Below, piece by piece: positions 10,137 through 52,829 of a DNA stretch of 64,000 nt; within the stretch, counting starts at the first letter, position 1; each line of letters starts with the position of its first letter. The notes beneath the pieces are model-generated. The model saw nothing but the letters and a program-made list of their open reading frames with translations. It ran no database searches and had not been told where the DNA came from. The DNA comes from an uncultured Alistipes sp. Its GTDB lineage: Bacteria; Bacteroidota; Bacteroidia; Bacteroidales; Rikenellaceae. The translations under genes were made by a program, and so were the position numbers. The stretch lies in assembly GCA_944320625.1 (NCBI GenBank), contig CALUIG010000002.1, positions 3,803 to 67,802 of the forward strand. Reading direction: 5' to 3'.

Positions 10137-10985
10137 TTACTTGCGGCTTTTCAAAAAGCACTCGATCGTATTCTCCATCAGGCAGCAGATCGTCATCGGA
10201 CCGACACCGCCCGGCACCGGCGTGATGACCGAGGCCTTGGGCTCGATGGCCGCAAAATCAACGTCACCGCACAGTTTGCCCGTCTCCGGGTCGCGGTTCA
10301 CACCCACGTCGATCACCACGGCACCCTCGGAGACCATATCGGCCGTCACGAATTTCGGGCGTCCGATGGCCACGACCAGAATCTCCGCGCCACGGGTCAC
10401 CTCCGCCAAGTTGCGCGTACGGCTGTGGGCCATCGTCACCGTGGCATTCGCATCCAGCAGCAGCTTCGAGACCGGAAGTCCCACGATATTGCTGCGTCCG
10501 ATCACCACGGCACGTTTCCCGGCGATCTCCACCCCGGCGGCCGTCAGCATCTTGAGGATCCCCTTCGGCGTGCAGGGCAGCGTGCAGGGCTGTTTCTGCC
10601 ACAAAGCCGCCACATTCAGCGGATGGAATCCATCCACATCCTTCGCCTTGTCGATCGCCTCGATCACCTTGCTCTCGTCGATGTGCTTCGGCAGAGGCAG
10701 CTGCACCAGAATCCCGTCCACCTCCGGATCGGCATTCAGTTCGGCGATCAGTCCCAGCAACTCCTCCTCCGAGATCGACTCCGGACGGCGGATCGTCGTA
10801 TTGCGGATTCCGACCTCGGCCGAGGCCTTCGCCTTGCCCGTCACATAACTCACACTGGCCGGGTTCTCACCCACGAGGATCACGACCAGATGGGGCACAC
10901 GCCCGTACTTCGCAGGAAAGCCCTTCACCTGCTCCGCCATTTCGGCCTTCAACCGGGCCGACAATTCCTTTCCGCTGATTATCAT
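10137..10985 (-). CDS. folD: Methylenetetrahydrofolate dehydrogenase/cyclohydrolase
   Basis: DGILVQLPLP, KDVDGFHP, PCTPKGI, GRSNIVG, TPVPGGVGPMT. Confidence 0.97.
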   Translation of the reverse strand: MIISGKELSARLKAEMAEQVKGFPAKYGRVPHLVVILVGENPASVSYVTGKAKASAEVGIRNTTIRRPESISEEELLGLIAELNADPEVDGILVQLPLPKHIDESKVIEAIDKAKDVDGFHPLNVAALWQKQPCTLPCTPKGILKMLTAAGVEIAGKRAVVIGRSNIVGLPVSKLLLDANATVTMAHSRTRNLAEVTRGAEILVVAIGRPKFVTADMVSEGAVVIDVGVNRDPETGKLCGDVDFAAIEPKASVITPVPGGVGPMTICCLMENTIECFLKSRK

Positions 10986-10996
10986 TCTCCTATTCG

Positions 10997-12250
10997 TTAT
11001 TTATCAAAAGCCCAATGTCCAATGTCCGTACGGTGGAAGAGGTTGTCGCAACCGATGCGCTCCACATCGCGCAACGCCGCAGCACGCGCCTCGGCCAGAT
11101 CACGACCCCGCCCCACGACGAACAGCACACGGCCTCCGGCCGTCAGAATACGGTCGCCGTCGGCCTTTGTACCCATGTGGTAGACCGTTCCCGCGACGTT
11201 TTCGAGTCCTGTGATCTCGTGCCCCTTTTCGTAGCTGCCCGGGTATCCCTTCGATGCCAGGACGATGCCCAGAGCGGCAAAATCGTGCCACTCCAACCGC
11301 GTGTCACGTCCCTCGGCCACGGCGCAGAAAATATCGACGATGTCACTCTTCAACCGCGGCAGTACCACCTCCGTCTCGGGATCGCCGAAGCGGGCGTTGA
11401 ACTCGATGACCTTGATACCCTGCGCCGTCTTCATCAGACCGCCGTACAGCACCCCTTCGAAGGGGCACCCTTCGGCAACCATCGCGTCGGCCACCGGCTG
11501 CAGGATGTGTTCCAAGGCGTAGCGCTCATCCTCGGCCGTAATGAACGGCAGCGGGGAGTAGGCCCCCATGCCACCCGTATTGGGACCCTTGTCGCCATCG
11601 TAGGCACGCTTGTGGTCCTGGGCCAGTACCATCGGCCAGACACGGTGCCCCGAGACGAAGCACATGAACGAGAACTCCGGGCCTTCGAGGTAATCCTCGA
11701 CGACGACCTTGCCTTCTCCGAACTTGTCGTCGAGCAGCATGTCCTTCAGGGCCGCATCGGCCTCCTCCATCGTCTGAGCGATCACCACGCCCTTCCCGGC
11801 CGCCAGTCCATCGTACTTCAGCACCGCCGGGAAAGGACGCCCGGCCACGTAGTCCCGGGCCGCGGCATACTCCGTGAAGGCGCGGAATCCGGCCGTCGGA
11901 ATGCCGTATCGGGCCATCAGCTCCTTGGCGAACTCCTTCGACGACTCGATGCGTGCCGCCGCCTTCGTGGGGCCGAAAATCCGCAGTCCCGCGGCCTTGA
12001 AACAATCGGCCACGCCGGCCGCGAGGGCCACTTCGGGCCCCACGACCGTCAGACTGATGCCCTGCTCTGCGGCAAAATCGCGCAGGCGCTCCACCTCGGT
12101 CTCCCGGATGGGCACACACTCGGCCTGTCGCGCGATTCCCGCATTGCCGGGGGCACAGTAAATCTTCTCCACCTGCGGCGAACGCGCAAGTGCATCGACA
12201 ATGGCGTGTTCGCGGCCTCCGCCGCCGATTACAAGCACTTTCATAGCCAT
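10997..12250 (-). CDS. purD: Phosphoribosylamine--glycine ligase
   Basis: VIGGGGREHA, APGNAG, QDHKRAYDGDKGPNTGGMG, EFNARFGDPE. Start could be 12244. Confidence 0.97.
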   Translation of the reverse strand: MAMKVLVIGGGGREHAIVDALARSPQVEKIYCAPGNAGIARQAECVPIRETEVERLRDFAAEQGISLTVVGPEVALAAGVADCFKAAGLRIFGPTKAAARIESSKEFAKELMARYGIPTAGFRAFTEYAAARDYVAGRPFPAVLKYDGLAAGKGVVIAQTMEEADAALKDMLLDDKFGEGKVVVEDYLEGPEFSFMCFVSGHRVWPMVLAQDHKRAYDGDKGPNTGGMGAYSPLPFITAEDERYALEHILQPVADAMVAEGCPFEGVLYGGLMKTAQGIKVIEFNARFGDPETEVVLPRLKSDIVDIFCAVAEGRDTRLEWHDFAALGIVLASKGYPGSYEKGHEITGLENVAGTVYHMGTKADGDRILTAGGRVLFVVGRGRDLAEARAAALRDVERIGCDNLFHRTDIGHWAFDK

Positions 12251-12265
12251 TCGCGTTTTCGTGGA

Positions 12266-13795
12266 TCAGTGTTTGAAATGGCGCTCGCCGGTGAAACACA
12301 TGGCAATGCCCTTCTCGTCGGCCTTACGGATCGAATCCTCGTCACGCACCGAACCGCCCGGCTGCACGATGGCCGTCACACCGTACTCGGCAGCCAGCGC
12401 CACACAGTCGTCGAAGGGGAAGAAACCGTCCGAAGCCAGGACGATACCCTCCGTCACACCGGCAGCCCGGGCCTGATTCAGGGCCAGTTCGGCCGAACCG
12501 ATGCGGTTCATCTGCCCGGCGCCGACTCCTAACGTGCGACCGTCCTTCACGGCCACGATGGCATTCGACTTCACGTGCTTGACGATTCTCCAGCCGAAGT
12601 TCAGGTCGTCCATCTGCTCCGCAGCGGGCTGCGCCTTCGTAACGCACATTTCGGGCGTCACCTCTTTCGTCGCCACGTCGAGGTCCTGCACCAGCAGACC
12701 GCCGTTGACGCTCACATACTGTTTCGGATCCACGGAGCCCTTCGTCATGTCGACCTCCAGCAACCGCAGATTCTTCTTCGTGCAAAGCACCTCCAGAGCC
12801 CCTTCGTCGAACTTCGGGGCCATGATGATCTCCAGGAAGATGGGCTTCATCAACTCGGCCGCCTCACGCGTCACGGTGCAGTTCGTGGCGACAATCCCGC
12901 CGAAGATCGAGACCTTGTCAGCCTCGTAGGCCTTGGTCCACGCCTCGACGACATCCTTGCCCTCGGCCGCCCCGCAGGGATTCATGTGCTTCAGTCCGAC
13001 GCAGAACGGACGGTCGAACTCCCGCACGATGCACAATGCGGCATTGGCATCCTGGATGTTGTTGTACGAGAGTTCCTTGCCGTTCAACTGGCGGGCGAAG
13101 GCCAGCGAATAGGGCACCTTGTGCTCCTCGCGGTAGAACTTCGCCGACTGGTGCGGGTTCTCGCCGTAGCGCAGCGGCTGCACGAGGTCGAACTCCAGGA
13201 AGAGTTTCTCGTTCAGGCCGGCCTGGGCACGCATGTAGGTGGCGATCATCGCGTCGTACTCTGCCGTATGGGTATAGGCCTTGGCCGAGAGTTTCAACCG
13301 CGTCGTCTTTTCCGTATTGCCGCCCTTGCCGATCTCGTCGAGGATCTGCGCATAGTCCGCCGGGTCGCATACCACCGTTACGTCGGCCCAGTTCTTCGCC
13401 GCCGAACGCAGCATCGAGGGGCCGCCGATGTCGATATTCTCGATGGCATCCTCCATCTTCACGTCGGGTTTCGCAATCGTCTGACGGAACGGATAGAGGT
13501 TCACGCACACCAGGTCGATGAACTCGATACCGTTCTCCTTGAGCGCCTTCAGATGCTCGGGATCGTCACGGCGTGCCAGCAGTCCGCCGTGGACCTTCGG
13601 GTGAAGGGTCTTGACCCGCCCGTCGCAGATCTCCGGAAAGCCCGTCACGTCGCTGATGTTCAACACCTCGACGCCGCTTTCACGCAGCAGTTTCATCGTG
13701 CCGCCCGTGGCGATCACCTCCCAACCGAGAGCCCGGAGCCCCTTGGCGAACTCCACGACACCCGTCTTGTCACTTACGCTGATCAATGCTCGCAT
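12266..13795 (-). CDS. purH: Bifunctional AICAR transformylase/IMP cyclohydrolase
   Basis: RALISVSDKTG, GRVKTLHP, ENIDIGGP, LRYGENPHQ, ASDGFFPF, RHFKH. Confidence 0.97.
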   Translation of the reverse strand: MRALISVSDKTGVVEFAKGLRALGWEVIATGGTMKLLRESGVEVLNISDVTGFPEICDGRVKTLHPKVHGGLLARRDDPEHLKALKENGIEFIDLVCVNLYPFRQTIAKPDVKMEDAIENIDIGGPSMLRSAAKNWADVTVVCDPADYAQILDEIGKGGNTEKTTRLKLSAKAYTHTAEYDAMIATYMRAQAGLNEKLFLEFDLVQPLRYGENPHQSAKFYREEHKVPYSLAFARQLNGKELSYNNIQDANAALCIVREFDRPFCVGLKHMNPCGAAEGKDVVEAWTKAYEADKVSIFGGIVATNCTVTREAAELMKPIFLEIIMAPKFDEGALEVLCTKKNLRLLEVDMTKGSVDPKQYVSVNGGLLVQDLDVATKEVTPEMCVTKAQPAAEQMDDLNFGWRIVKHVKSNAIVAVKDGRTLGVGAGQMNRIGSAELALNQARAAGVTEGIVLASDGFFPFDDCVALAAEYGVTAIVQPGGSVRDEDSIRKADEKGIAMCFTGERHFKH

Positions 13796-13808
13796 ATTCG
13801 TCTCTTCT

Positions 13809-14384
13809 TTATTTTGTTTGTTTTTCGTTCAACAATTTTCCGATCGTCTCGACATAAAGCGGGTACTCCACCGCATGAATCATCGGTTCCAGCTCCGCGA
13901 TGTCGTGTCCCTCGTAAGGGAATGCCCGCTGGGCAATGATCCGCCCGCCGTCGAGTTCGGCATCGACGTAATGGATCGTCACACCGAAGACCTTCACACC
14001 ATACTCCAGGGCCTGTTCGATGGCATGCGCCCCGCGGAAGGCCGGCAGCAGCGACGGGTGGATGTTGATGATCCGCCCCGCATAGGCCGCAAGCAGTTCC
14101 TCGCCGATGATCCGCATGTAGCCGGCCAGACAGACCAGTTCGACCCCGGCGGCACCCAGCCGTGCGATGATCTCGCGTTCGTAGTCGGCCTTCGAGGCGT
14201 ACTCCTTCGGTGCGAAGGCGAAAGTCTCGACCCCATGCCGGGCCGCACGTTCGATCACCCGGGCCCCGGGCCTGTCGCAGACCATCAACACAACCTCCGC
14301 GGGCAGATCGCCCCGCTCGCAGGCCGTCACGATGGCCTCGAAATTCGTGCCGCTGCCGCTGGCAAAGACTGCAAGGCGGTGCAT
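13809..14384 (-). CDS. purN: Phosphoribosylglycinamide formyltransferase
   Basis: Start MHRLAVFASGSGTN; LAGYMRI, INIHPSLLPAF, HYVDAELDGG. Confidence 0.96.
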   Translation of the reverse strand: MHRLAVFASGSGTNFEAIVTACERGDLPAEVVLMVCDRPGARVIERAARHGVETFAFAPKEYASKADYEREIIARLGAAGVELVCLAGYMRIIGEELLAAYAGRIINIHPSLLPAFRGAHAIEQALEYGVKVFGVTIHYVDAELDGGRIIAQRAFPYEGHDIAELEPMIHAVEYPLYVETIGKLLNEKQTK

Positions 14385-14388
14385 GGCC

Positions 14389-15414
14389 CTATCGGATAAC
14401 GACACTCCCGGTGTCCGTGACACGTCCGATGACCGAAGCCCGTTCGCCCTGGGCCGTCAGGATCTCGATGGCCTTCGGAGCCTCCGCGGCGTCCAGCGCG
14501 ATGACCATGCCGATTCCCATGTTGAAGATGTTGAACATCTCGCGGTGCGCCACCTTGCCGTACTTCTCCAGGAAACGGAACACCGGCAGGATCTCCCACG
14601 AGCCCTCCTCGATCTCCAGCCCCTGCCCTTCATGCAGGATGCGCGGGATATTCTCGTCAAAACCGCCGCCCGTGATGTGGCTGATGCCGTGGACGTCGCA
14701 CTGCCGAATCACCTCGAGGACCTGCTTCACGTAGATCTTCGTCGGCGTGAGCAGCACCTCACCCAGCAATTTGTTCGACAGTTCGGGATAGCTGCGGTGC
14801 AGATCGAAACAGTTGTCCGCAAGGATCTTGCGTACCAGGCTGAAGCCGTTCGAGTGGACGCCGCTCGACGCGATGCCCACCAGTACGTCACCCGTACGGA
14901 CCTTCGAGCCGTCGATCAGCTTCGACTTCTCGACCACACCGACCGTGAATCCGGCAATGTCATACTCCCCGTCGGCATACATGCCCGGCATCTCGGCCGT
15001 CTCGCCGCCCACCAGGGCGCAGCCTGCCTGCCGGCACCCCTCGGCGACACCTGCCACGATGGCCTCGATCTTCTGGGGTTCGTTGTGCCCCACGGCCACG
15101 TAGTCCAGGAACAGCAGCGGTTCGGCACCTTGGGCCAGGACATCGTTCACGCACATCGCCACGGCATCGATACCGATCGTGTCATGCTTGTCCATCTGGA
15201 AGGCCAGCTTGAGCTTCGTGCCCACGCCGTCCGTGCCGCTCACCAGCACCGGCTCCCGGACCTTCAGCGCCGCGAGGTCGAACATCCCGCCGAAAGCGCC
15301 GATATTGCCCATCACGCCCGTGCGGGCCGTCGAAGCCACGTGTTTCTTGATGCGTCGCACCACTTCGTAACCGGCTTCGAGGTTCACACCGGCCTTTTCA
15401 TAACTTTGAGCCAT
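14389..15414 (-). CDS. purM: Phosphoribosylformylglycinamidine cyclo-ligase (AIR synthetase)
   Basis: [45 protein letters not shown]. Confidence 0.97.
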
Positions 15415-15444
15415 AACTATTCAGGGTTTTTAAGATTCCTAACA

Positions 15445-16863
15445 CTATTTGTTGTCCTTGTTGGCCTCCTCCATCGACTGATACAGCGCCGTGGGATACG
15501 AACCCGTGAAGCAGGCCATGCACAACTCGCAGCGGTTGCCGGCCTTCAGCAGCGATTCCGCGGAGAGGAAGGCCAGCGAATCGGCTCCGATCTCCTGACG
15601 GACCCCCTCCACGTTCTTGCGCGCCGAGATCAGTTCGTCATAGGTCGACGTGTCGACACCGTAGAAGCAGGGTCCGATCATCGGAGGGCTGGCAATGCGC
15701 ACGTGCACTTCGGTGGCTCCGGCCTCCTTGAGCATCGTAACGATGCGCCGCGAGGTCGTGCCCCGCACGATCGAGTCGTCGACCAACACCACGCGCTTGC
15801 CCCGCACGATCGAACGCACGGCCGAAAGTTTCATCCGCACGCCCTTTTCACGCAACTCCTGCGTCGGCTGGATGAAGGTCCGCCCGATGTACTTGTTCTT
15901 GATCAGACCCATCTCATAGGGCAGGCCGCTCTCTTCGGCATAACCCATCGCGGCACTGAGGCTCGAATCCGGGACGCCGACCACGATGTCGGCCTCGGCC
16001 GGAGACTCCTGACACAACAGACGTCCCGACTCCTTGCGGTAGGCGTGGACGTTGCACCCCTCGATGTCGCTGTCCGGACGCGCAAAGTAGATGTACTCCA
16101 TCGAACACATCTCGTGACGCTTGTACATCGAGTAGTCGCGGCTGCGGAGACCCTGGTGATCGATGGTGACGATCTCGCCCGGCTCGACGTCGCGCACGAA
16201 CTCCGCACCCAGCACGTCGAAGGCGCACGTCTCGCTCGAAACGACCCAACCCTCGCCCAAACGACCGATCGACAGCGGACGCAGGCCATACTTGTCACGG
16301 CAGGCGTAGATCCGGTTGGCCGTCATGATCAGGAAGGCAAAAGCGCCCTCCAGCATGTTCAGCGCATCGATGATCGAGAAGATGCGCGGCCGGTCATGGA
16401 ACCGGGACTCCTTCTTGATCAGATGGGCCAGGATCTCGCTGTCGGAGGTCGACTGGAAGAGACTGCCCCGGTTTTCGAGATACTCGCGCAGCAACGCCGA
16501 ATTGACGATATTGCCGTTGTGGGCCATGGCGAAATCGCCCGTGTTGTGGCGGAACAGGAACGGCTGGATATTCTCCACACCGCCTCCCCCGGCCGTCGTA
16601 TAACGTACGTGGCCTATGGCCATCGAACCCTTCAACGTGGCGAGTTTCCCCTCGTCGAAGACCTCGGTCACCAGACCGCCGCCCTTGATACGGCGGAACG
16701 TACCCTTTTCATCCACCGAGACAATCCCGGCACCCTCCTGCCCGCGGTGTTGCAGCGCATGGAGACCGTAATAGGTGAGCGAAGCGGCATCCGGCACCCC
16801 GTAGATGCCGAAAACCCCGCACTCCTCATGCAACTCGCGGTCGCGGATCACTTCTTCCATCAT
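15445..16863 (-). CDS. purF: Amidophosphoribosyltransferase
   Basis: Propeptide plus EECGVFG, LQHRGQEGAG, GHVRY, VDDSIVRGTTS; Fe-S cysteines (PCFYG, CMAC). Confidence 0.97.
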   Translation of the reverse strand: MMEEVIRDRELHEECGVFGIYGVPDAASLTYYGLHALQHRGQEGAGIVSVDEKGTFRRIKGGGLVTEVFDEGKLATLKGSMAIGHVRYTTAGGGGVENIQPFLFRHNTGDFAMAHNGNIVNSALLREYLENRGSLFQSTSDSEILAHLIKKESRFHDRPRIFSIIDALNMLEGAFAFLIMTANRIYACRDKYGLRPLSIGRLGEGWVVSSETCAFDVLGAEFVRDVEPGEIVTIDHQGLRSRDYSMYKRHEMCSMEYIYFARPDSDIEGCNVHAYRKESGRLLCQESPAEADIVVGVPDSSLSAAMGYAEESGLPYEMGLIKNKYIGRTFIQPTQELREKGVRMKLSAVRSIVRGKRVVLVDDSIVRGTTSRRIVTMLKEAGATEVHVRIASPPMIGPCFYGVDTSTYDELISARKNVEGVRQEIGADSLAFLSAESLLKAGNRCELCMACFTGSYPTALYQSMEEANKDNK

Positions 16864-16864
16864 G

Positions 16865-17581
16865 TTATTCGGTAATTTTTCTCAAACGCTCCAGAATCTC
16901 CTCGTAAGCCTCGCGCACCCGGCCCAGGTCACGGCGGAAACGGTCCTTGTCGAGCCGCTCACCCGTGGTCATGTCCCACAGACGGCACGTGTCGGGCGAC
17001 ACCTCGTCGGCCAGCACGATCTCACCCTCCGGCGTCCGGCCGAACTCGATCTTGAAGTCCACCAGCGTGATGTTCATCCGCGCGAACAGCGACTTGAGGA
17101 TCTCGTTGATCCGCGTGGTCATGGCATAGATCCGGTCCAACTCCCCGTAGGTCACGAGCCCCAGCGCTACGGCATGGTGGTCGTTGATGAGCGGATCGCC
17201 CAGTTCATCCCGCTTGTAGCAGATGTCGATGATCGTGTTCGAGGGCTGCGTACCCTCCTCGATGCCCAGGCGCTGAGCCATCGAACCCGCAACGATGTTG
17301 CGGACGATGACCTCCAGCGGAATGATCGTCACCCGGCGGCATACCTGGTCGCGGTCATTGATCGTATCGATGTAGTGGGTCTTCACCCCGGCCTTCTCCA
17401 ACTCCCGGAAGAGGATCGTCGAGATGGCATTGTTCACCACCCCCTTGTTTTCGATCGTGGCCTTCTTGATGTTGTTGAACGCCGTGGCCGTATCCTTGTA
17501 GTGGATGATGATCTTCTCGGGATCATCCGTCCGGAAAACCTGCTTCGCCTTACCCTCGTAGAGCATTTCGAGCTGTTTCAT
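16865..17581 (-). CDS. purC: SAICAR synthetase
   Basis: [45 protein letters not shown]. Confidence 0.97.
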
Positions 17582-17614
17582 CTCTATTTTTCGCGTTTGA
17601 ATGATTCGGTTGTT

Positions 17615-20600
17615 CTATTTTTTCCGGAAATAGGCGACGGCATTCTCGAAGAGCGGCTGCCGCCTGTTGCCTGCAATGTTCTTGAATAGGTTCTCCTCCC
17701 AGCGCTCCGTGTGGCCCATCTTGCCGAGGATCTGACCGTTTTTCGAAACGATACCCTCGATGGCATAGGACGAACCGTTGGGGTTGAACGGTGCTTCGGC
17801 CGTGGGCCGGCCCTCGGCGTCGGCGTACTGGAAGGCCACCTGTCCCGCCTCGAACAGTTCGCGGGCCAGCTTTTCGCTCACCACGAACTTGCCTTCGCCG
17901 TGGCTGACGGCGATCGAGTGCAGGTCGCCGACATGGAACGACGACAACCACGGCGAGTTGGTCGAAGCCACGCGGGTCGTAACGATCTGCGAGATGTGGC
18001 GGTTGATGTCGTTGCGGAACAGCGTCGGGGACTCCTTCGTGACCATCCCCAGGCGTCCGTAGGGCAGCAGTCCCGACTTGACCAGCGCCTGAAAACCGTT
18101 GCAGATACCCAGGATCAGCCCCCCGCGGTCCAGCAGGGCGTGGATCTCCGCCATAATATCCTTGTTATTCAAGACATTGACAATGAATTTGGCACTTCCG
18201 TCGGGTTCGTCGCCCGAGGAGAAGCCGCCGCTCAGCACGAAGATATGGGCCCGGCGGATGTGCTCCTTCATCTCGGCGATCGAACGCAGGATGTCGTCGC
18301 CCGCGATGTTGCACAGCACGCTCATCTCCACTTCGGCTCCGGCCCGGCGGAACGCCTTGGCCGTGTCGTAGTCGCAGTTCGTGCCGGGGAAGACCGGAAT
18401 GTAGACCAGCGGGTGTTCGACCGCCTCGCCCGGATAGGTGAAGTGCTTTTCGGCTGGCTGCGAAGTCATTACCTCAGCCGAGTTCAAGCCCTTGTCCGGA
18501 TAGACGGCCGCAAAGCGCTCGGTATTGGCCCGGTACAATTCGTCGAGCGGCATCCGCACACCGCCGACCGTCACCGATTCGTCGGCTACCGTGAAGCCCA
18601 CAAGTTCCGCATCCGGATACTCCAGCGTCCCTTCGCACTCCACGAGGATCGAACCGTAGGCATAGTCGTAGAGTTTCGACTCCTCCATCGTGACCTCCAC
18701 GCCGATACCGTTTCCGAAGGCCATCTTCGCCACGCCTTCGGCCACGCCGCCGAAGCCCACGGACCACGCTGCGAGAATCTTCCCTTCGGCAATCCGGTCG
18801 CTCACGAACGTGAAGTTCCGCTTCAACTGCGCCGTATCGGGCATCCAGTTCTCACGCGGCGTGTGGCGCACGAGGTACAACCGGTGTCCGGCCCCCTTCA
18901 GGTCGGTCGAGATCACCCGCCGCGCATCGACCGTCGTAATGCCGAAGGCCATCAGCATCAGCGGCACGTTGATATGCTGGAACGTCCCCGACATCGAGTC
19001 CTTGCCGCCAATCGACGGAAGGCCCAGTTCGACCTGCATCTTCAAGGCTCCCAGTAGCGCACCCAGCGGTTTGCCCCACGATTCGGCATCCTTGGTCATG
19101 CGTTCGAAATACTCCTGGTAGGAGTAGCGCATCCGGTCGTAGCGCGCACCCGCAGCCACGACCTTCGCCGCAGCCTCCACCACGGCATAGGCCGCCCCGT
19201 GGTAGGGGCTCCACGATGCCACATAGGGGTTGTAGCCGAAGGCCATCACACTGGCCGTATCGGTATAGCCGTCCGTCGGGAGCTTCTGCACCGAAACCTG
19301 CGTCTCGCTGCGCTGCGTACGTCCGCCGAAGGGCATCAGCACCGTCGAGCGGCCGATCGTCGAGTCGAACATCTCGATCAGCCCCCGCTGCGAGACGACA
19401 TTATTGTCCTTTAGGTTGTTGGCAAAGCGTTCCACCGTCGTGGCGCCCTCGATCGTCCGTGCGAAGGGGTTGCGATTCTCCACTTCGCCGATCTTTGCCT
19501 CGGCGTAGTGCTTCGCACCCGCGCTGTCGATGAATTCGCGGCTCAGATCCACGACCTTCCGGGCACCGTTGAACATCCGCATCCGCCCCGTGTCCGTCAC
19601 GTCGGCCACGTGCACCGCCTCGATGTTCTCCTCGCGGCAGTAACCCATGAACTCCTCCATGTCCTTCGCCTCCACAACCACCGACATGCGCTCCTGCGAC
19701 TCGCTGATGGCCAGTTCCGTGGAGTTCAGACCGCTGTATTTCGTCTTCACCCGGTCGAGGTAGATGTCCAGGCCGTCGGCCAGCTCGCCGATCGCCACGC
19801 TGACACCGCCCGCACCGAAGTCGTTCGATTTCTTGATCAACCGGGTCACCTCCGGACGCCGGAACAGCCGTTCCAGTTTCCGCTCCTCGGGAGCGTTTCC
19901 CTTCTGCACCTCGCTGCCGCACGTCTCCAGCGACTTGGCGTCGTGCTCCTTCGACGAACCCGTCGCTCCGCCGATGCCGTCACGACCCGTCCGGCCGCCG
20001 AACATGATAATCCGGTCTCCCGGAGCCGGGCGCTCGCGCCGCACGTTCTCCGCCTTCACGGCTCCGACGACGGCGCCCACCTCCAGACGCTTGGCCACAT
20101 AGTCCTCGTGGTAGATTTCACGCACGTGCGTCGTAGCCAGGCCGATCTGGTTGCCGTAGCTCGAATAGCCCGCGGCGGCCTTCTTCGAGATGACGCTCTG
20201 CGGGAGTTTCCCGGCGAGGGTCTCCGAAACCGGCAGGTAGATGTTCCCGGCCCCTGTCACACGCATCGCCTGATAGACGTAACTGCGGCCCGACAGCGGG
20301 TCGCGGATCGCGCCGCCCAGGCAGGTCGAGGCCCCGCCGAAGGGTTCGATCTCCGTCGGATGGTTGTGCGTCTCGTTCTTGAACTGCAGGAGCCACGTCT
20401 CCGGCTTCCCGTCGACGTCGACCTCCACGTAGATCGAGCAGGCGTTGTTCTCCTCCGAGACCTCCAGGTCGTCCAACAACCCCTTCTGTTTCAGGTAGCG
20501 CGCCCCGATCGTCGCCATGTCCATCAGGCAGATGCTCTTGTGCTCGCGGCCCAGTTCGCGGCGGATCCGCAGGTAGAGCGCCAGCGAATCCTCGATCTCG

Positions 20601-21328
20601 CTCTTCACGAACGACTCCTCGACGGTGATGCCTTCGAGTTCGGTCGTGAAGGTCGTATGGCGGCAGTGGTCGCTCCAGTAGGTATCCAGGATGCGCAACT
20701 CCGTCTCGTAGGGATCGCGCCCCTCGGCCCGGAAGTATTTCACCACCTCATAGAGGTCGTCGGCATTCATCGCCAGGCCCATCCGCTTACAGTAAGGCTC
20801 CAGCTCGTCATCCGTCATCTCCCGAAAACCCTCCAGCACCTGAACGGGCTTTACCTCGGCCTGCTCCATGTCCGTCAGCACCGAGAGATCCTTTTCGCGC
20901 GACTCCACGGCATTGATATAGTAGTGGCGGATCCGGGCCAGCTCCTCCTCGGTCACGCTGTCATCAAAGAGCAGCAACTTCGCCGAGCGGATGTTCACCT
21001 GCGCCTCGGGGTCAATCAGCCGCACGCAGTCCACCGCCGAAGCGGCCCGCTGGTCGAACTGTCCGGGCAGGCACTCCACGGCGATATACTTGCGGCCCGC
21101 CAAGTCGCACGTGTCGCTCACCTCATCGGTCACCACCTCGCCGAAGACCGTGTAACGGCTCTTCTCCAGCAACTCCGCCGTAAAGCCGAACAGGTCATAG
21201 ACGTTCAGCAGGCGCAATTCGCGCAGCGAGAGGTTCAGGTTCGTGTTCAGTTCGCGCCGAAGGCTCTCCGCCTCCACCCGGAAGCGCGGCAGTTTCTCGA
21301 CGAAAATACGATAGTCGGTCGTGTTCAT
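17615..21328 (-). CDS. purL: Phosphoribosylformylglycinamidine synthase (large, fused form)
   Basis: YWSDHCRHTTF, KNETHNHPTEIEPFGGA, DFGAGG; C-terminal glutaminase FPGTNC, GICNGFQ, MGHTER. Confidence 0.97.
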   Translation of the reverse strand: MNTTDYRIFVEKLPRFRVEAESLRRELNTNLNLSLRELRLLNVYDLFGFTAELLEKSRYTVFGEVVTDEVSDTCDLAGRKYIAVECLPGQFDQRAASAVDCVRLIDPEAQVNIRSAKLLLFDDSVTEEELARIRHYYINAVESREKDLSVLTDMEQAEVKPVQVLEGFREMTDDELEPYCKRMGLAMNADDLYEVVKYFRAEGRDPYETELRILDTYWSDHCRHTTFTTELEGITVEESFVKSEIEDSLALYLRIRRELGREHKSICLMDMATIGARYLKQKGLLDDLEVSEENNACSIYVEVDVDGKPETWLLQFKNETHNHPTEIEPFGGASTCLGGAIRDPLSGRSYVYQAMRVTGAGNIYLPVSETLAGKLPQSVISKKAAAGYSSYGNQIGLATTHVREIYHEDYVAKRLEVGAVVGAVKAENVRRERPAPGDRIIMFGGRTGRDGIGGATGSSKEHDAKSLETCGSEVQKGNAPEERKLERLFRRPEVTRLIKKSNDFGAGGVSVAIGELADGLDIYLDRVKTKYSGLNSTELAISESQERMSVVVEAKDMEEFMGYCREENIEAVHVADVTDTGRMRMFNGARKVVDLSREFIDSAGAKHYAEAKIGEVENRNPFARTIEGATTVERFANNLKDNNVVSQRGLIEMFDSTIGRSTVLMPFGGRTQRSETQVSVQKLPTDGYTDTASVMAFGYNPYVASWSPYHGAAYAVVEAAAKVVAAGARYDRMRYSYQEYFERMTKDAESWGKPLGALLGALKMQVELGLPSIGGKDSMSGTFQHINVPLMLMAFGITTVDARRVISTDLKGAGHRLYLVRHTPRENWMPDTAQLKRNFTFVSDRIAEGKILAAWSVGFGGVAEGVAKMAFGNGIGVEVTMEESKLYDYAYGSILVECEGTLEYPDAELVGFTVADESVTVGGVRMPLDELYRANTERFAAVYPDKGLNSAEVMTSQPAEKHFTYPGEAVEHPLVYIPVFPGTNCDYDTAKAFRRAGAEVEMSVLCNIAGDDILRSIAEMKEHIRRAHIFVLSGGFSSGDEPDGSAKFIVNVLNNKDIMAEIHALLDRGGLILGICNGFQALVKSGLLPYGRLGMVTKESPTLFRNDINRHISQIVTTRVASTNSPWLSSFHVGDLHSIAVSHGEGKFVVSEKLARELFEAGQVAFQYADAEGRPTAEAPFNPNGSSYAIEGIVSKNGQILGKMGHTERWEENLFKNIAGNRRQPLFENAVAYFRKK

Positions 21329-21358
21329 TTATTGTTTTTGTTTGCTTTTGCTCTGTTC

Positions 21359-22468
21359 TTATTTCACGAAACGGTCGGACCACTCCCGCTCGTACGCCCC
21401 GCCCGTCATGCCGACGAAGGTGATGTGTCCCATCTTGCGTTTCGGGCGGCTTTCGCTCTTGCCGTAGATGTGGACGTAGGTGTTCGGATGCTCCTCCCGC
21501 GCCACGGCCCGGGCCGCTTCGAGGTCCTGCCCGAGGATGTTCTTCATCACCGTCGGAGCCACCAGCCGCGGCTCCTGCAACGGCTCGCCGATCAAATAGC
21601 GCACCAGTTCGCGGAACTGGTTGGTCGTACACCCCTCGATCGTATAGTGCCCCGAGTTGTGGGGGCGCGGCGCCATCTCGTTGAAGTAGATCTCTCCGCC
21701 CCGGATGAAGTACTCGATGGCCAGGATCCCTTCGTAGCCGCACTCGCGCATGAAGCCTTCGCTCTGTGCCTTCATCCGGTCGAGCACCTCCTGCGAGGCC
21801 GCCGCCGGAACGATCGAGAGGTCCAGAATGCCGTCGCGGTGGATATTCCGCCCCACGGGGAAGCTCACGACCCGTTCCCGGTCGGCCACCATCACGATAC
21901 TGGCCTCCGAGTCGAACGGAATGAACTCCTCCAGGATGCAGGGAACCGTCAGCAGCGGCAGTGCCCGTTCGATGTCGGCTTCGCTCTTCAGCACCAGCTG
22001 CCCGTGTCCGTCGTAGCCCAGCGTACGGGTCTTCAGCACCGCCGGAAGCCCCAGCTCGCGCACCGCGGCCCGCAGCGACGCTTCATCGTCCACGGCCGCA
22101 AAACCCGGAGTTTGCAGCCCGTGGTCGCGGGCATTCGACTTCTCGCGCAGGCGGTCCTGCGAATCGTAGAGCGGTTTATACCCCTGCGGGATGTTGTATT
22201 TTTCGCACAGCGGGATCAGGATCTCGCCCGGAACATTCTCGAATTCGTAGGTCACCACGTCGCACATGCCGCACAGCCGTTCGAGCGCCGCGGCATCGTC
22301 GTAAGCCGCCACGATATGATCGTCGCAGACCCGGAAGGCCGGAGCATCCGGCGCCGGATCGAGTGCCACGGCCCGCACGCCCAGGCCATGCGCCTGTTCG
22401 GCGATCATCAGCCCCAGCTGTCCCCCTCCGATAATTCCGATCGTCTTCATTTTTCCCGGATTTTCCAT
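21359..22468 (-). CDS. purK: N5-carboxyaminoimidazole ribonucleotide synthase
   Basis: IGIIGGGQLG, TYEFEN, GYDGHGQ, NEMAPRPHNSGH, RKMGH. Alternative starts at 22450 or 22477. Confidence 0.95.
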   Translation of the reverse strand: MENPGKMKTIGIIGGGQLGLMIAEQAHGLGVRAVALDPAPDAPAFRVCDDHIVAAYDDAAALERLCGMCDVVTYEFENVPGEILIPLCEKYNIPQGYKPLYDSQDRLREKSNARDHGLQTPGFAAVDDEASLRAAVRELGLPAVLKTRTLGYDGHGQLVLKSEADIERALPLLTVPCILEEFIPFDSEASIVMVADRERVVSFPVGRNIHRDGILDLSIVPAAASQEVLDRMKAQSEGFMRECGYEGILAIEYFIRGGEIYFNEMAPRPHNSGHYTIEGCTTNQFRELVRYLIGEPLQEPRLVAPTVMKNILGQDLEAARAVAREEHPNTYVHIYGKSESRPKRKMGHITFVGMTGGAYEREWSDRFVK

Positions 22469-22502
22469 ATGGTTCATCTCCTCACGAGCCTTGTGTTCCT
22501 CC

Positions 22503-22547
22503 ATTCCGGCTCCCGGACTCCTTATTCCGGCTCCCGGACTCCTTATT
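22503..22547. repeat. 21-bp tandem duplication (2 copies plus 3 nt) at the purE 3' end
   Basis: ATTCCGGCTCCCGGACTCCTT at 22503-22523 and 22524-22544, followed by ATT. Confidence 0.9.
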
Positions 22548-23019
22548 TCAATTCGGCTTTCAGGACGTCGGCAGTCTGCTTGGCGCGGAAGGCGTCGAGT
22601 TTCGCGGCCAGTGCCTCGTCCTGCAACGCCAGGATCGACACGGCGATCAGCGCGGCATTCTTGGCTCCGTTGATTGCGGTCGTGGCCACGGGAACACCCG
22701 CCGGCATCTGCACGATCGAAAGCAGCGAGTCCAGGCCGTTCAGGGCCCGCGACTTCACCGGAACGCCCACGACCGGCAGCGTCGTCATCGAAGCCACCAT
22801 ACCCGGAAGGTGGGCTGCACCGCCCGCGCCGGCAATGATTACGCCGATCCCGCGCTGTTTCGCGGTCTTGGCATATTCGCACAGCAGGTCCGGCGTACGG
22901 TGGGCGCTGACCACCCGTTTTTCAAACTCCACGCCGAACGATTCGAGCATCGTCACCGCGTCGGACATCACTTCGTAGTCGCTCACCGAGCCCATAATCA
23001 CGCCTACTTTCATAGCCAT
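22543..23019 (-). CDS. purE: N5-CAIR mutase
   Basis: [41 protein letters not shown]. Start 23019 or 23013. Confidence 0.97.
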
Positions 23020-23047: not shown

Positions 23048-23087
23048 AAAAAAACAGACCGCCACGACATCGCATGTCATGGCGGTC
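23048..23087 (-). terminator. Intrinsic terminator (attenuator) in the pur operon leader
   Basis: Minus strand GACCGCCATGACAT-gcg-ATGTCGTGGCGGTC-TG-T7, located between the promoter and purE. Confidence 0.85.
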
Positions 23088-23093
23088 CGGTAT

Positions 23094-23237
23094 CTATCCG
23101 AGAAGTCCGCAAGCCGACTGTCGTCGCACCAAGGAGCCGGTGCCACGCATCGACTGATACGCCGAAGAATAGAAGGCAGCGGCCTGGACCTGTTGCTGCT
23201 TCCGCTCGCGCCGGTCGATCGTGCAGAGTGAGTTCAT
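23094..23237 (-). CDS. Putative pur operon leader peptide (47 aa)
   Basis: Manual translation MNSLCTIDRRERKQQQVQAAAFYSSAYQSMRGTGSLVRRQSACGLLG*; starts 30 nt after the -7 element and stops 6 nt before the terminator stem. Confidence 0.55.
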   Translation of the reverse strand: MNSLCTIDRRERKQQQVQAAAFYSSAYQSMRGTGSLVRRQSACGLLG

Positions 23238-23267
23238 CGGGATAACCTAACTGTTAAAACATCGTTA

Positions 23268-23298
23268 CAAAAGTAGCGCTTTTCGCCCTACTTTCAAA
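23268..23298 (-). promoter_or_regulatory. pur operon sigma-A promoter
   Basis: TTTG (23295-23298)-N19-TACTTTTG (23268-23275) on the minus strand. Confidence 0.8.
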
Positions 23299-23434
23299 AT
23301 TCCGGGACAGATTATATCGACATTTTATCGACAATCGCCCCGGAACACACGAAACACCCCGGAAACCGCAATGGCCCCGGGGTGAAATCCTTCTCTTCGG
23401 GACGGGCATCCGTCTCCCCTCCCGTCCATCGCCG

Positions 23435-25293: not shown

Positions 25294-25554
25294 CTATTCC
25301 AATGCCTGCCGCAGTACCCGTTCCACCTCATCGGGGTAGATGCCGCCCTCGTGGACCTTCACCCCGTCGACGTAGAACGTCGGCACGTAATAATAGTCGT
25401 ACCGGTCGGCCACGGCCGGCTCCTCCGACTCCTCGATCATCTCGATTGCGACCGCTTCCAGCTCCGGATGAGCCGCCTTCGCCTCCTCGATGTAGCGCAG
25501 CGCCTTCTTGCAGAAGGGGCACGACTTCAGGTAGAAAAGTTTGACGGGTTTCAT
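25294..25554 (-). CDS. Glutaredoxin/thioredoxin-like protein
   Basis: 86 aa; CPFC active site; [10 protein letters not shown] cis-Pro motif; own TATCTTTG element at 25561-25568. Confidence 0.85.
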
Positions 25555-33603: not shown

Positions 33604-33635
33604 AAAAAAATAGGGCAACCGAAACAGTTACCCTA
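33604..33635 (-). terminator. Intrinsic terminator (attenuator) in the pyr operon leader
   Basis: Minus strand TAGGGTAACTG-ttt-CGGTTGCCCTA-T7, directly before pyrC. Confidence 0.85.
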
Positions 33636-33735
33636 ATAAAACAATAATACCGAATCCTGCCGAAGAGTGGGACCCCGACCAATAATCCTGCTGCCAGAAC
33701 TTCTGTGCCGTTGGGATGAGGGGGTTACAATTCAT
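33628..33735 (-). CDS. Putative pyr operon leader peptide (35 aa)
   Basis: Manual translation MNCNPLIPTAQKFWQQDYWSGSHSSAGFGIIVLLG*; the stop codon lies inside the 5' arm of the terminator. Confidence 0.6.
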   Translation of the reverse strand: MNCNPLIPTAQKFWQQDYWSGSHSSAGFGIIVLLG

Positions 33736-33761
33736 AGGATTCGGTCCGCTGTAATTGCTCA

Positions 33762-33793
33762 CAAAGATAGGGGTTTTTCGCCTCCCCTGCAAA
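33762..33793 (-). promoter_or_regulatory. pyr operon sigma-A promoter
   Basis: TTTG (33790-33793)-N20-TATCTTTG (33762-33769) on the minus strand. Confidence 0.8.
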
Positions 33794-42852: not shown

Positions 42853-42937
42853 TTGCCGGTCAATTTTTCACAAAGATAACCTTTTTTGCGCGAAACCTTA
42901 TGGCGTTCCGCGGAAAAAAGCGTACTTTTGTCGCGCC

Positions 42938-43108
42938 GCGGTTCCGAAAACACCCCGAAAACGGGTGTCGGGATTAAAAGGGAATGCCGTGAAAATCGGC
43001 AACAGTTCCCGCTGCTGTGAGTTGCAGACCGCGTTCCGGTACTCTTGGCCACTGTCCCCTTCCGGGACGGGAAGGCGCCGGAACGGCAACAAGTCAGAAG
43101 ACCTGCCC
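42938..43108 (+). ncRNA. Cobalamin riboswitch
   Basis: GGTT..AAAAGGGAATGCCGTGAAAATCGGCAACAGTTCCCGCTGCTGTGA..GCCACTG..GGGAAGGC..AAGTCAGAAGACCTGCC B12 box; TACTTTTG promoter element at 42923-42930. Boundaries approximate. Confidence 0.93.
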
Positions 43109-43224
43109 CGGCATTTCACTCTGGAAACCCTGCGGTGAATGGGGTCCGAAGCGAATCCGAATGCCTTTCGCAGATCTCCGCCCACCCGGTTCCCGGAGCA
43201 ACATCCGAAAACGGAAACGACGCG

Positions 43225-52280: not shown

Positions 52281-52477
52281 ACCGTCGGCAAAGGTAGGAA
52301 TTTTTCCCGGGATTCGCCACAGACCCGCCGGTTTTGTCCCGATTCGGGGTGCGGAATTCCGGAATCCGCCCTGCAGATCTCCCGAAGCGGGCTTCGCGGG
52401 GCTGTTCATAACTTGTTCATTAAAATTTCCCCCGAAAAGATTGCGCTTCTCCGAACTATCCCTATCTTTGTTCCCGA

Positions 52478-52643
52478 GCAAGGTTCCCAGCCGGCGGCTG
52501 CCGGCCCGGGATCAAAAGGGAACTCCTGTGCAAATCAGGGACTATGCCCGTAGCTGTAAGCTCCGAAAAAGGCTGCACACTCTCTGCCACTGTCCTGTGG
52601 GGACGGGAAGGCGTGCGGCGGGAGCGAGTCAGAAGACCTGCCT
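52478..52643 (+). ncRNA. Cobalamin riboswitch
   Basis: AGGTTCC..AAAAGGGAACTCCTGTGCAAATCAGGGACTATGCCCGTAGCTGTAA..GCCACTG..GGGAAGGC..GAGTCAGAAGACCTGCCT; TATCTTTG at 52463-52470. Boundaries approximate. Confidence 0.93.
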
Positions 52644-52829
52644 TGCCGAACCGGCCGAAACCCTCGGGATGTCAGGGCAACGCCGCAACTGTTTTTACTT
52701 TTTTTGAACATACGATCCCCGGTACGACGGCCTGTCGTACGACGTTCCGTGCACCCCCTTTGCGCCGTGCCGGAGCCGTTCGCCCGTCTGCCGGAACGAT
52801 TGTGCAAACCCTAAACTCATTGGACCATT

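Follow-up and report, generated by a model that had tools for sequence, protein, structure and literature searches.

The controls known to us for de novo purine synthesis are PurR repressors and riboswitches. Purine, ZTP (pfl), PRPP/ppGpp (ykkC) and THF riboswitches resemble the leader described here in lying in front of purine genes and in having an intrinsic terminator. Sensing of nucleoside triphosphates (NTPs) through the coupling of transcription to translation is described for pyrimidine genes and, with the opposite logic, for mgtC of Salmonella (available passages of PMC3641672). In Escherichia coli, the pyrBI operon is preceded by a short leader ORF, pyrL, that abuts or overlaps an intrinsic terminator, and this nucleotide biosynthesis operon is under a UTP-sensitive, translation-coupled control in which no antiterminator is needed; tight coupling blocks the hairpin (excerpts of PMC4824070, PMC5021804 and PMC3641672). 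As far as the excerpts go, pyrBI relies on the principle of a ribosome near the terminator (PMC5021804, PMC3641672). In the same species, a terminator preceded by a stop codon at 28 bp lost most of its efficiency, from about 90% to less than 10%, once the stop was brought to 5 bp, and without translation this loss of termination at short distance disappeared (excerpt of PMC4824070).

Two further systems are close to the present one. The leader of the Salmonella mgtCBR operon, with the tandem attenuators mgtM and mgtP, reads ATP via transcription-translation coupling, as we propose for the purine leader below; the mgtM peptide is not conserved, and the same leader carries an amino-acid codon signal (Pro). 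mgtM differs in its conserved A residues, its alternative stem-loops and its lack of an intrinsic terminator, and it is switched on at high ATP and serves virulence and Mg genes (available passages of PMC3641672). In the trpL and leuL attenuators, an ORF enriched in the codons of one amino acid precedes an intrinsic terminator (available part of PMC5314783). A literature search whose scope ended short of the main attenuation reviews and of supplements found no account of a leader of this kind before purine genes. None appears in the available portions of PMC4833913, PMC13323073, PMC7858274, PMC12288461, PMC5314783 and PMC6524683, and the small ORFs noted in long Bacteroides 5′ UTRs are not linked to purines in the accessible text of PMC7366714.

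The leader studied here lies in a 64,000-nucleotide stretch of DNA from an uncultured Alistipes sp., called the window. The leader sits between pyrB (end 23435) and purE (ATG 23013), all on the minus strand. A first-pass annotation, made from the letters alone, had read a promoter, a 47-codon ORF, a terminator and purE in this order, and every part was found where it had been placed:

23268 to 23298, minus strand: predicted promoter of Bacteroidetes type, TTTG-N19-TAnnTTTG (23298-23268), in agreement with the Bacteroidetes promoter consensus
23298-23295 and 23275-23268, minus strand: promoter sub-boxes TTTG and TAnnTTTG, with a 19 nt spacer between them
23094 to 23237, minus strand: leader ORF of 47 codons plus TAG, Gln-rich and Pro-poor, conserved in frame and stop position and not in peptide
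23184 to 23207, minus strand: U-free run with the Gln codon cluster ERKQQQVQ, read from the sequence; a similar R/K/Q cluster occurs in the close clade
23048 to 23089, minus strand: intrinsic terminator, a hairpin of 16 pairs that has a conserved U-G wobble and a 3′ arm rich in G, followed by U7
10137 to 23013, minus strand: operon purE-purK-purL-purC-purF-purM-purN-purH-purD-folD downstream of the leader, typed with NCBIfam

The terminator hairpin (23089-23055) has a folding energy of -27.3 kcal/mol (z -6.3) and is followed by U7 at 23054-23048. The distance from stop codon to terminator, earlier put at 4-6 nt, is 4 nt, and the hairpin core begins at 8 nt. A sigma-70 scan gave no promoter prediction on the minus strand of the leader region. 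The purE product is typed TIGR01162, and a second in-frame ATG lies at 23019. The leader peptide matched no family of NCBIfam or Pfam. Near the predicted transcription start there is also a two-codon mini-ORF, Met-Phe-stop (23262-23254, minus strand), found at the same place in six close relatives. Within the operon, PurL is of the single-chain TIGR01857 type, and a 21-bp tandem duplication separates purE from purK (22526-22538, 22505-22517), each copy scoring as a small terminator-like hairpin on the plus strand.

Of 251 genomes of the genus, 237 yielded a purE gene. We analysed 126 distinct leaders (125 of the genus, this window included, and one from another family), picked from the best-scoring matches downward, so that close relatives are over-represented; all compared genomes are kin, and the counts therefore overstate independence. 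A strict filter kept 106 leaders with the family terminator; among the 20 others are hairpins of a similar type that have diverged, as well as loci in which no terminator was found. The layout of promoter, ORF, terminator and purE is conserved across the genus, and the TAnnTTTG box lies upstream in 100 of the 106 leaders. An ORF of at least 25 codons with its stop at -9 to -5 of the terminator core is present in 62 of 106, against 2.1 ± 1.4 in dinucleotide shuffles, which supports the leader-ORF attenuator with pyrBI-like geometry that the first-pass annotation had proposed. With an ATG frame of at least 20 codons and a stop 1-15 nt before the hairpin core, the count is 86 of 106, with a peak at -8 (32 leaders) and -7 (20 leaders). 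Among the 100 leaders with a promoter box, an ATG frame reaches the terminator in 96: 86 stop just before it, 3 inside it and 7 read through, and in the other 4 no frame of the required length reaches it. To judge from these sequences, the selected trait looks to be reaching the hairpin rather than stopping. Four congeners carry shortened leaders (L073, L080, L128 and L129) in which 41-116 nt separate promoter and terminator and the long ORF has been lost or falls short of the terminator; these are natural loss-of-leader variants.

Ordinary genes of the source genome end differently. By crude gene calls, a gene stop lies near 151 of 277 predicted terminators at a median distance of 29 nt, and within 12 nt in only 4 of the 151. 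Ordinary terminators are thus kept beyond the reach of the ribosome, and the stop of the leader ORF is held within it; the ORF comes within the ribosome footprint of the intrinsic terminator, as in the pyrBI type. The leader is very probably a ribosome-occlusion attenuator of this type. The leader ORF would be translated, and a ribosome that gets to its end before the polymerase has left the terminator would mask the 5′ arm of the hairpin, so that the pur genes are read through; with a lagging ribosome, the hairpin would form and transcription would stop. The 11 RNA runs listed for the locus of a congener consist of contigs; in four of them, from one study, the contigs bridge the terminator in three cases, and in the fourth a contig of low depth ends shortly before the hairpin, an end that carries no information on termination.

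The same window holds a second leader of this design, in front of the pyrimidine operon, which served as an internal control:

33604 to 33769, minus strand: leader of the pyr operon, with a promoter box at 33769, a 35-codon ORF, a hairpin and U7
33735-33628, minus strand: pyr leader ORF of 35 codons with a U-rich end, its stop lying inside the hairpin 33635-33611

Downstream of it follow a pyrC-like gene (dihydroorotase-like, under the curated cut-offs), carA, a pyrK-like gene, pyrD, pyrF, a pyrE-like gene and pyrB. By its sequence, this leader would be a pyrBI-like attenuator in a Bacteroidota genus, and it matches pyrBI, as far as the latter is described in the accessible text, down to the U-rich tract. 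The complete pyr and pur operons stand back to back (33589-10137, minus strand). A small glutaredoxin-like gene lies between pyrF and pyrE on the plus strand (25294-25554). The pyrB gene (about 24508-23435, minus strand) encodes a C-terminal extension with four cysteines and a weak match to the PyrI regulatory subunit (TIGR00240, E 4e-4); its product would be PyrB fused to the PyrI zinc domain. Downstream of pyrB, a GC-rich hairpin with a U-containing stretch (23384-23355, minus strand) is likely to be the terminator of the pyr operon, isolating the pur promoter. In the source genome, 876 promoter-like sites were counted, of which 93 are followed by a terminator and nine rows (eight loci) have an ORF ending at the terminator; the clear biosynthetic cases among these eight loci are the pur and pyr leaders, and a leuA row is also listed. 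Among 50 pyrC loci of the genus, 44 had the hairpin, and 37 of these 44 the ORF-terminator layout.

The two leaders differ in composition. The pyr leaders have 48-59% U in their last 20 nt. Where a genome has both leaders, as 28 do, the last 30 nt are always poorer in U in the pur leader (0.24 versus 0.43 in the pyr leader), and its purine content is higher than that of the pyr leader in 26. The 3′ arm of the terminator contains 56% G in pur leaders, 24% in pyr leaders and 39% in the background; at least six G in the 3′ arm also occur in 47 of 277 background terminators, and the G-rich arm of the pur terminators is one inherited sequence. The U-rich tract for UTP-sensitive pausing is thus present in the pyr twin and absent from the U-poor pur leader. 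An A or G counterpart of this tract is not clearly seen in pur leaders. The longest U-free run is 22.3 nt compared with 16.8 nt in shuffles, but the longest purine, G and A runs are 7.1, 3.7 and 3.8 nt compared with 7.6, 3.9 and 3.3 nt. The U-free, purine-rich run to which the first-pass annotation had drawn attention exists in this leader (23207-23189, 15 of 19 purines); across leaders, runs of purines, of A or of G are at most slightly longer than in shuffles.

The pause consensus of Bacteroides fragilis polymerase resembles that of E. coli (available part of PMC11685472). Steps of a pyrimidine followed by G number 17.8 per 100 nt in pur leaders versus 18.6 in genes. The elemental pause (G-10, Y-1, G+1) was considered as a GTP sensor, at 5.96 per 100 nt versus 4.51 in shuffles, and was rejected as specific evidence because genes give 5.69 per 100 nt. 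The A-rich spacer was likewise rejected as a purine signal, since its 43% A equals the 42% of background terminators. Because no excess of A or G tracts was found, sensing of a purine NTP is argued by analogy, on the grounds of which genes lie downstream, of the twin design and of the absence of U tracts, and we lean only slightly towards a purine NTP as the main signal.

The codons of the leader ORF carry a clearer mark. Across pur leader ORFs, Gln makes up 9.5% of residues in frame versus 1.8% and 2.6% in the other two frames, both Gln codons are enriched, and 36 of 43 sequence clusters have more Gln in frame than out of frame. Its share is 2.0% in control ORFs from intergenic DNA (732 ORFs) and 3.4% in genes, and at least 12% Gln is reached by 24 of 69 leaders compared with 3 of the 732 controls. 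Avoidance of stop codons was rejected as the source, as the control ORFs show no such excess. The cluster QQQVQ picked out earlier lies at 23198-23184; over the whole set, Gln codons are dispersed with no single fixed run, and Gln occurs once or not at all in 7 of 69 pur leaders. His is mildly enriched and Pro is low, and Pro-Pro is absent from all 69 leaders; in E. coli, poly-Pro before the pyrL hairpin increases termination in the absence of EF-P (excerpt of PMC5021804). The source genome encodes GlnRS. The proposal of purine-NTP or glutamine sensing thus gained codon-level evidence on its Gln side, and on the purine side any excess of purine, A or G runs is slight at most. Given the Gln excess in frame, glutamine may be a second input. 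The pyr leaders are enriched in Gln as well (7.2%, in 6 of 8 clusters, one cluster comprising 29 of the 37 sequences), and the signal is therefore not specific for purines.

Taken as a whole, an explanation by occlusion, with low purine NTP as the on-signal, commands somewhat more of our credence than of our doubt; that a Gln gate acts together with it is possible rather than probable. When GTP or ATP is low, the polymerase would move slowly through the leader, which is poor in U, and through the G-rich 3′ arm of the terminator, the ribosome would catch up, and the operon would be switched on. Low GTP could slow translation as well. When Gln-tRNA is short, the ribosome would be slowed at the Gln codons and the operon kept off: as there is no antiterminator, slowing at these codons would favour termination, which would make sense in pathways that use up glutamine. 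The operon would then be on when purines are low and glutamine is available. A broader proposal, which we put forward tentatively and hold to be possible rather than probable, is that both de novo nucleotide operons of the genus are under one protein-free, two-input leader-ORF design, in which the speed of the polymerase would report the pool of the end-product NTP (UTP in the pyr case, GTP/ATP in the pur case) and the pace of the ribosome at Gln codons would report the nitrogen donor, the operon opening only when the nucleotide is low and Gln is available.

The same occlusion could have ribosome speed as its main signal, set by the supply of Gln-tRNA or by general translational capacity; both nucleotide operons would then shut when Gln or amino acids are short, and purine feedback would lie elsewhere. 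The Gln excess is the only strong codon-level signal, it is seen in both pur and pyr leaders, no A or G tract is enriched, and the de novo pathways for purines and pyrimidines both consume Gln. We nevertheless consider this reading unlikely, given that a U tract in the pyr twin and none in the pur leader point to tuning by the specific nucleotide, and that some leaders are nearly without Gln and the Gln codons of the others are dispersed.

Control at initiation was also considered, as the pur promoter is preceded by a repeated element:

23315 to 23333, minus strand: tandem 8-bp direct repeat with an 11-bp period, candidate operator or upstream promoter element, at -58/-47 from the -7 promoter box

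The tandem box occurs twice in the source genome, before purE and before guaB. One box or more was found in 75 of 80 purE leaders, where it keeps fixed positions, in 22 of 43 pyrC promoters and in 26 of 680 background promoter-like sites. In a relaxed form, it is found at 19 promoters of the source genome, and a single box precedes purA, prs and pyrC; besides the purE leader, loci with the box include L342 (at about 1805-1785), L343 and L344. The box is presumably one mismatch from a DnaA box, and no cluster of at least three boxes was found in the source genome. From its distribution, it is possibly an operator of a nucleotide regulon or an element of strong promoters, which suggests a second layer of control, and the purine response could run through it in part or even entirely. 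In that case, the leader might be a fixed dampener or a check on translation quality, with purine control exerted at initiation through the tandem box and a factor. The fixed position of the box and its recurrence before other nucleotide genes speak for such an arrangement. We judge it improbable, because guaB has the tandem box without a leader ORF or terminator, a fixed dampener needs neither the contrast in composition between pur and pyr leaders nor the Gln excess, and the relaxed box stands, in 14 of its 19 occurrences at promoters, before genes that are not nucleotide genes as read from the N-terminus (nadB being the only one of them typed by HMM).

A new riboswitch or a binding site for an RNA-binding protein, centred on the conserved terminator and with the ORF secondary, was also considered. 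In its favour, seven terminator pairs are invariant in 30 closer leaders and the U-G wobble is kept in 28 of them; the 15 pairs of the terminator are 96% kept in these leaders, seven of them with changes on both sides. The consensus fold of these leaders comprises the terminator and one 4-bp helix within the ORF, for which some two-sided changes are seen in the close clade, and nothing else. However, terminators of distant leaders change in sequence with compensation, the leader ORF folds no better than expected (z -0.55 ± 1.21 in 69 leaders), and pairing of the terminator 5′ arm with upstream sequence, as an antiterminator would require, did not exceed that of shuffles (z +0.55; 1 of 69 below -2). 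A long hairpin noted in the first reading (23112-23155) does fold in this leader (-22.9, z -2.9); it is missing from the 30-sequence consensus, and the matching region (-70 to -20) has a local fold z of -0.13 over 69 non-redundant leaders. In Rfam (15), nothing in the leader reached the gathering score, the E-value listing held just three weak matches, all of them to unrelated families (E 1.5-6.3), and 20 homologous loci gave nothing but one tRNA. The by-eye reading, which had found no fit to the purine, ZTP/pfl, THF or ykkC riboswitch cores, was thereby upheld, and the branch of the first-pass annotation that allowed for a new riboswitch gained no support, with no conserved aptamer or antiterminator found. 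In the source genome (86.6% complete), nothing matched NF003549 (PRK05205), which we take to be PyrR, or TIGR01743 (B. subtilis PurR). A riboswitch or protein site is therefore highly improbable. Elsewhere in the window, two cobalamin riboswitches (RF00174, 105 bits each) were found on the plus strand, at 42922-43124 and 52464-52659. Control through the sequence of the leader peptide, of the arrest-peptide type, is the least probable reading: 28 of 69 leader peptides end in Gly, frequently preceded by aliphatic residues, and dN/dS is 0.55 over 19 disjoint pairs, but this simple count falls below 1 under transition bias, the peptides range from 26 to 69 aa with no residue conserved across the genus and no conserved C-terminal arrest motif found, and 10 leaders stop inside or beyond the hairpin.

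Occlusion of the terminator by the leader ribosome thus stands as the preferred reading, and it can be set against the described systems as far as these are known from the excerpts. The pur leader most likely works like the pyrBI attenuator, to which it is likened by design rather than by sequence. It differs from pyrBI in serving purine genes, in having no homopolymer tract of the sensed base, in its Gln excess, in a stop that usually lies before the hairpin and in its occurrence in Bacteroidota; by the criterion of a U tract and pyrimidine genes it is outside the pyrBI type. Nor is it a known riboswitch: unlike the purine, ZTP, PRPP/ppGpp and THF classes, it matches no Rfam family and shows no conserved aptamer. 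Among purine precedents mgtM of Salmonella comes closest, with the opposite polarity; compared with mgtCBR, the pur leader has one ORF, an intrinsic terminator and no alternative stems, and controls a biosynthetic operon. Compared with trpL and leuL, it has no antiterminator, its polarity would be the reverse, in that a ribosome stalled at Gln codons would promote termination, and Gln is a substrate of the pathway rather than its product.

Outside the genus, where the range check covered purE loci, the full design was absent from the best 28-29 loci (L309-L337), drawn from 250 genomes of the order. Among the 80 matches listed by a scan with the terminator pattern, 12 are from Alistipes, and the remainder resemble chance GC-rich matches. 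In most other families of the order, purE is more distant and lies in other contexts, a pattern that may reflect lateral acquisition.

If the proposed mechanism is true, a ribosome-gated terminator before the pur operon would be a third route of purine control, and would explain how a costly ten-gene pathway is controlled in a common gut genus in whose leader no purine riboswitch was detected. It would be the first pyrBI-type attenuator of purine biosynthesis and, with it, a glutamine-codon gate of reverse polarity; the Gln excess makes such a gate for substrate availability directly testable. The adjacent pur and pyr leaders form a ready swap system for how RNA polymerase reads NTP pools, and they bear on whether transcription-translation coupling operates in Bacteroidota.
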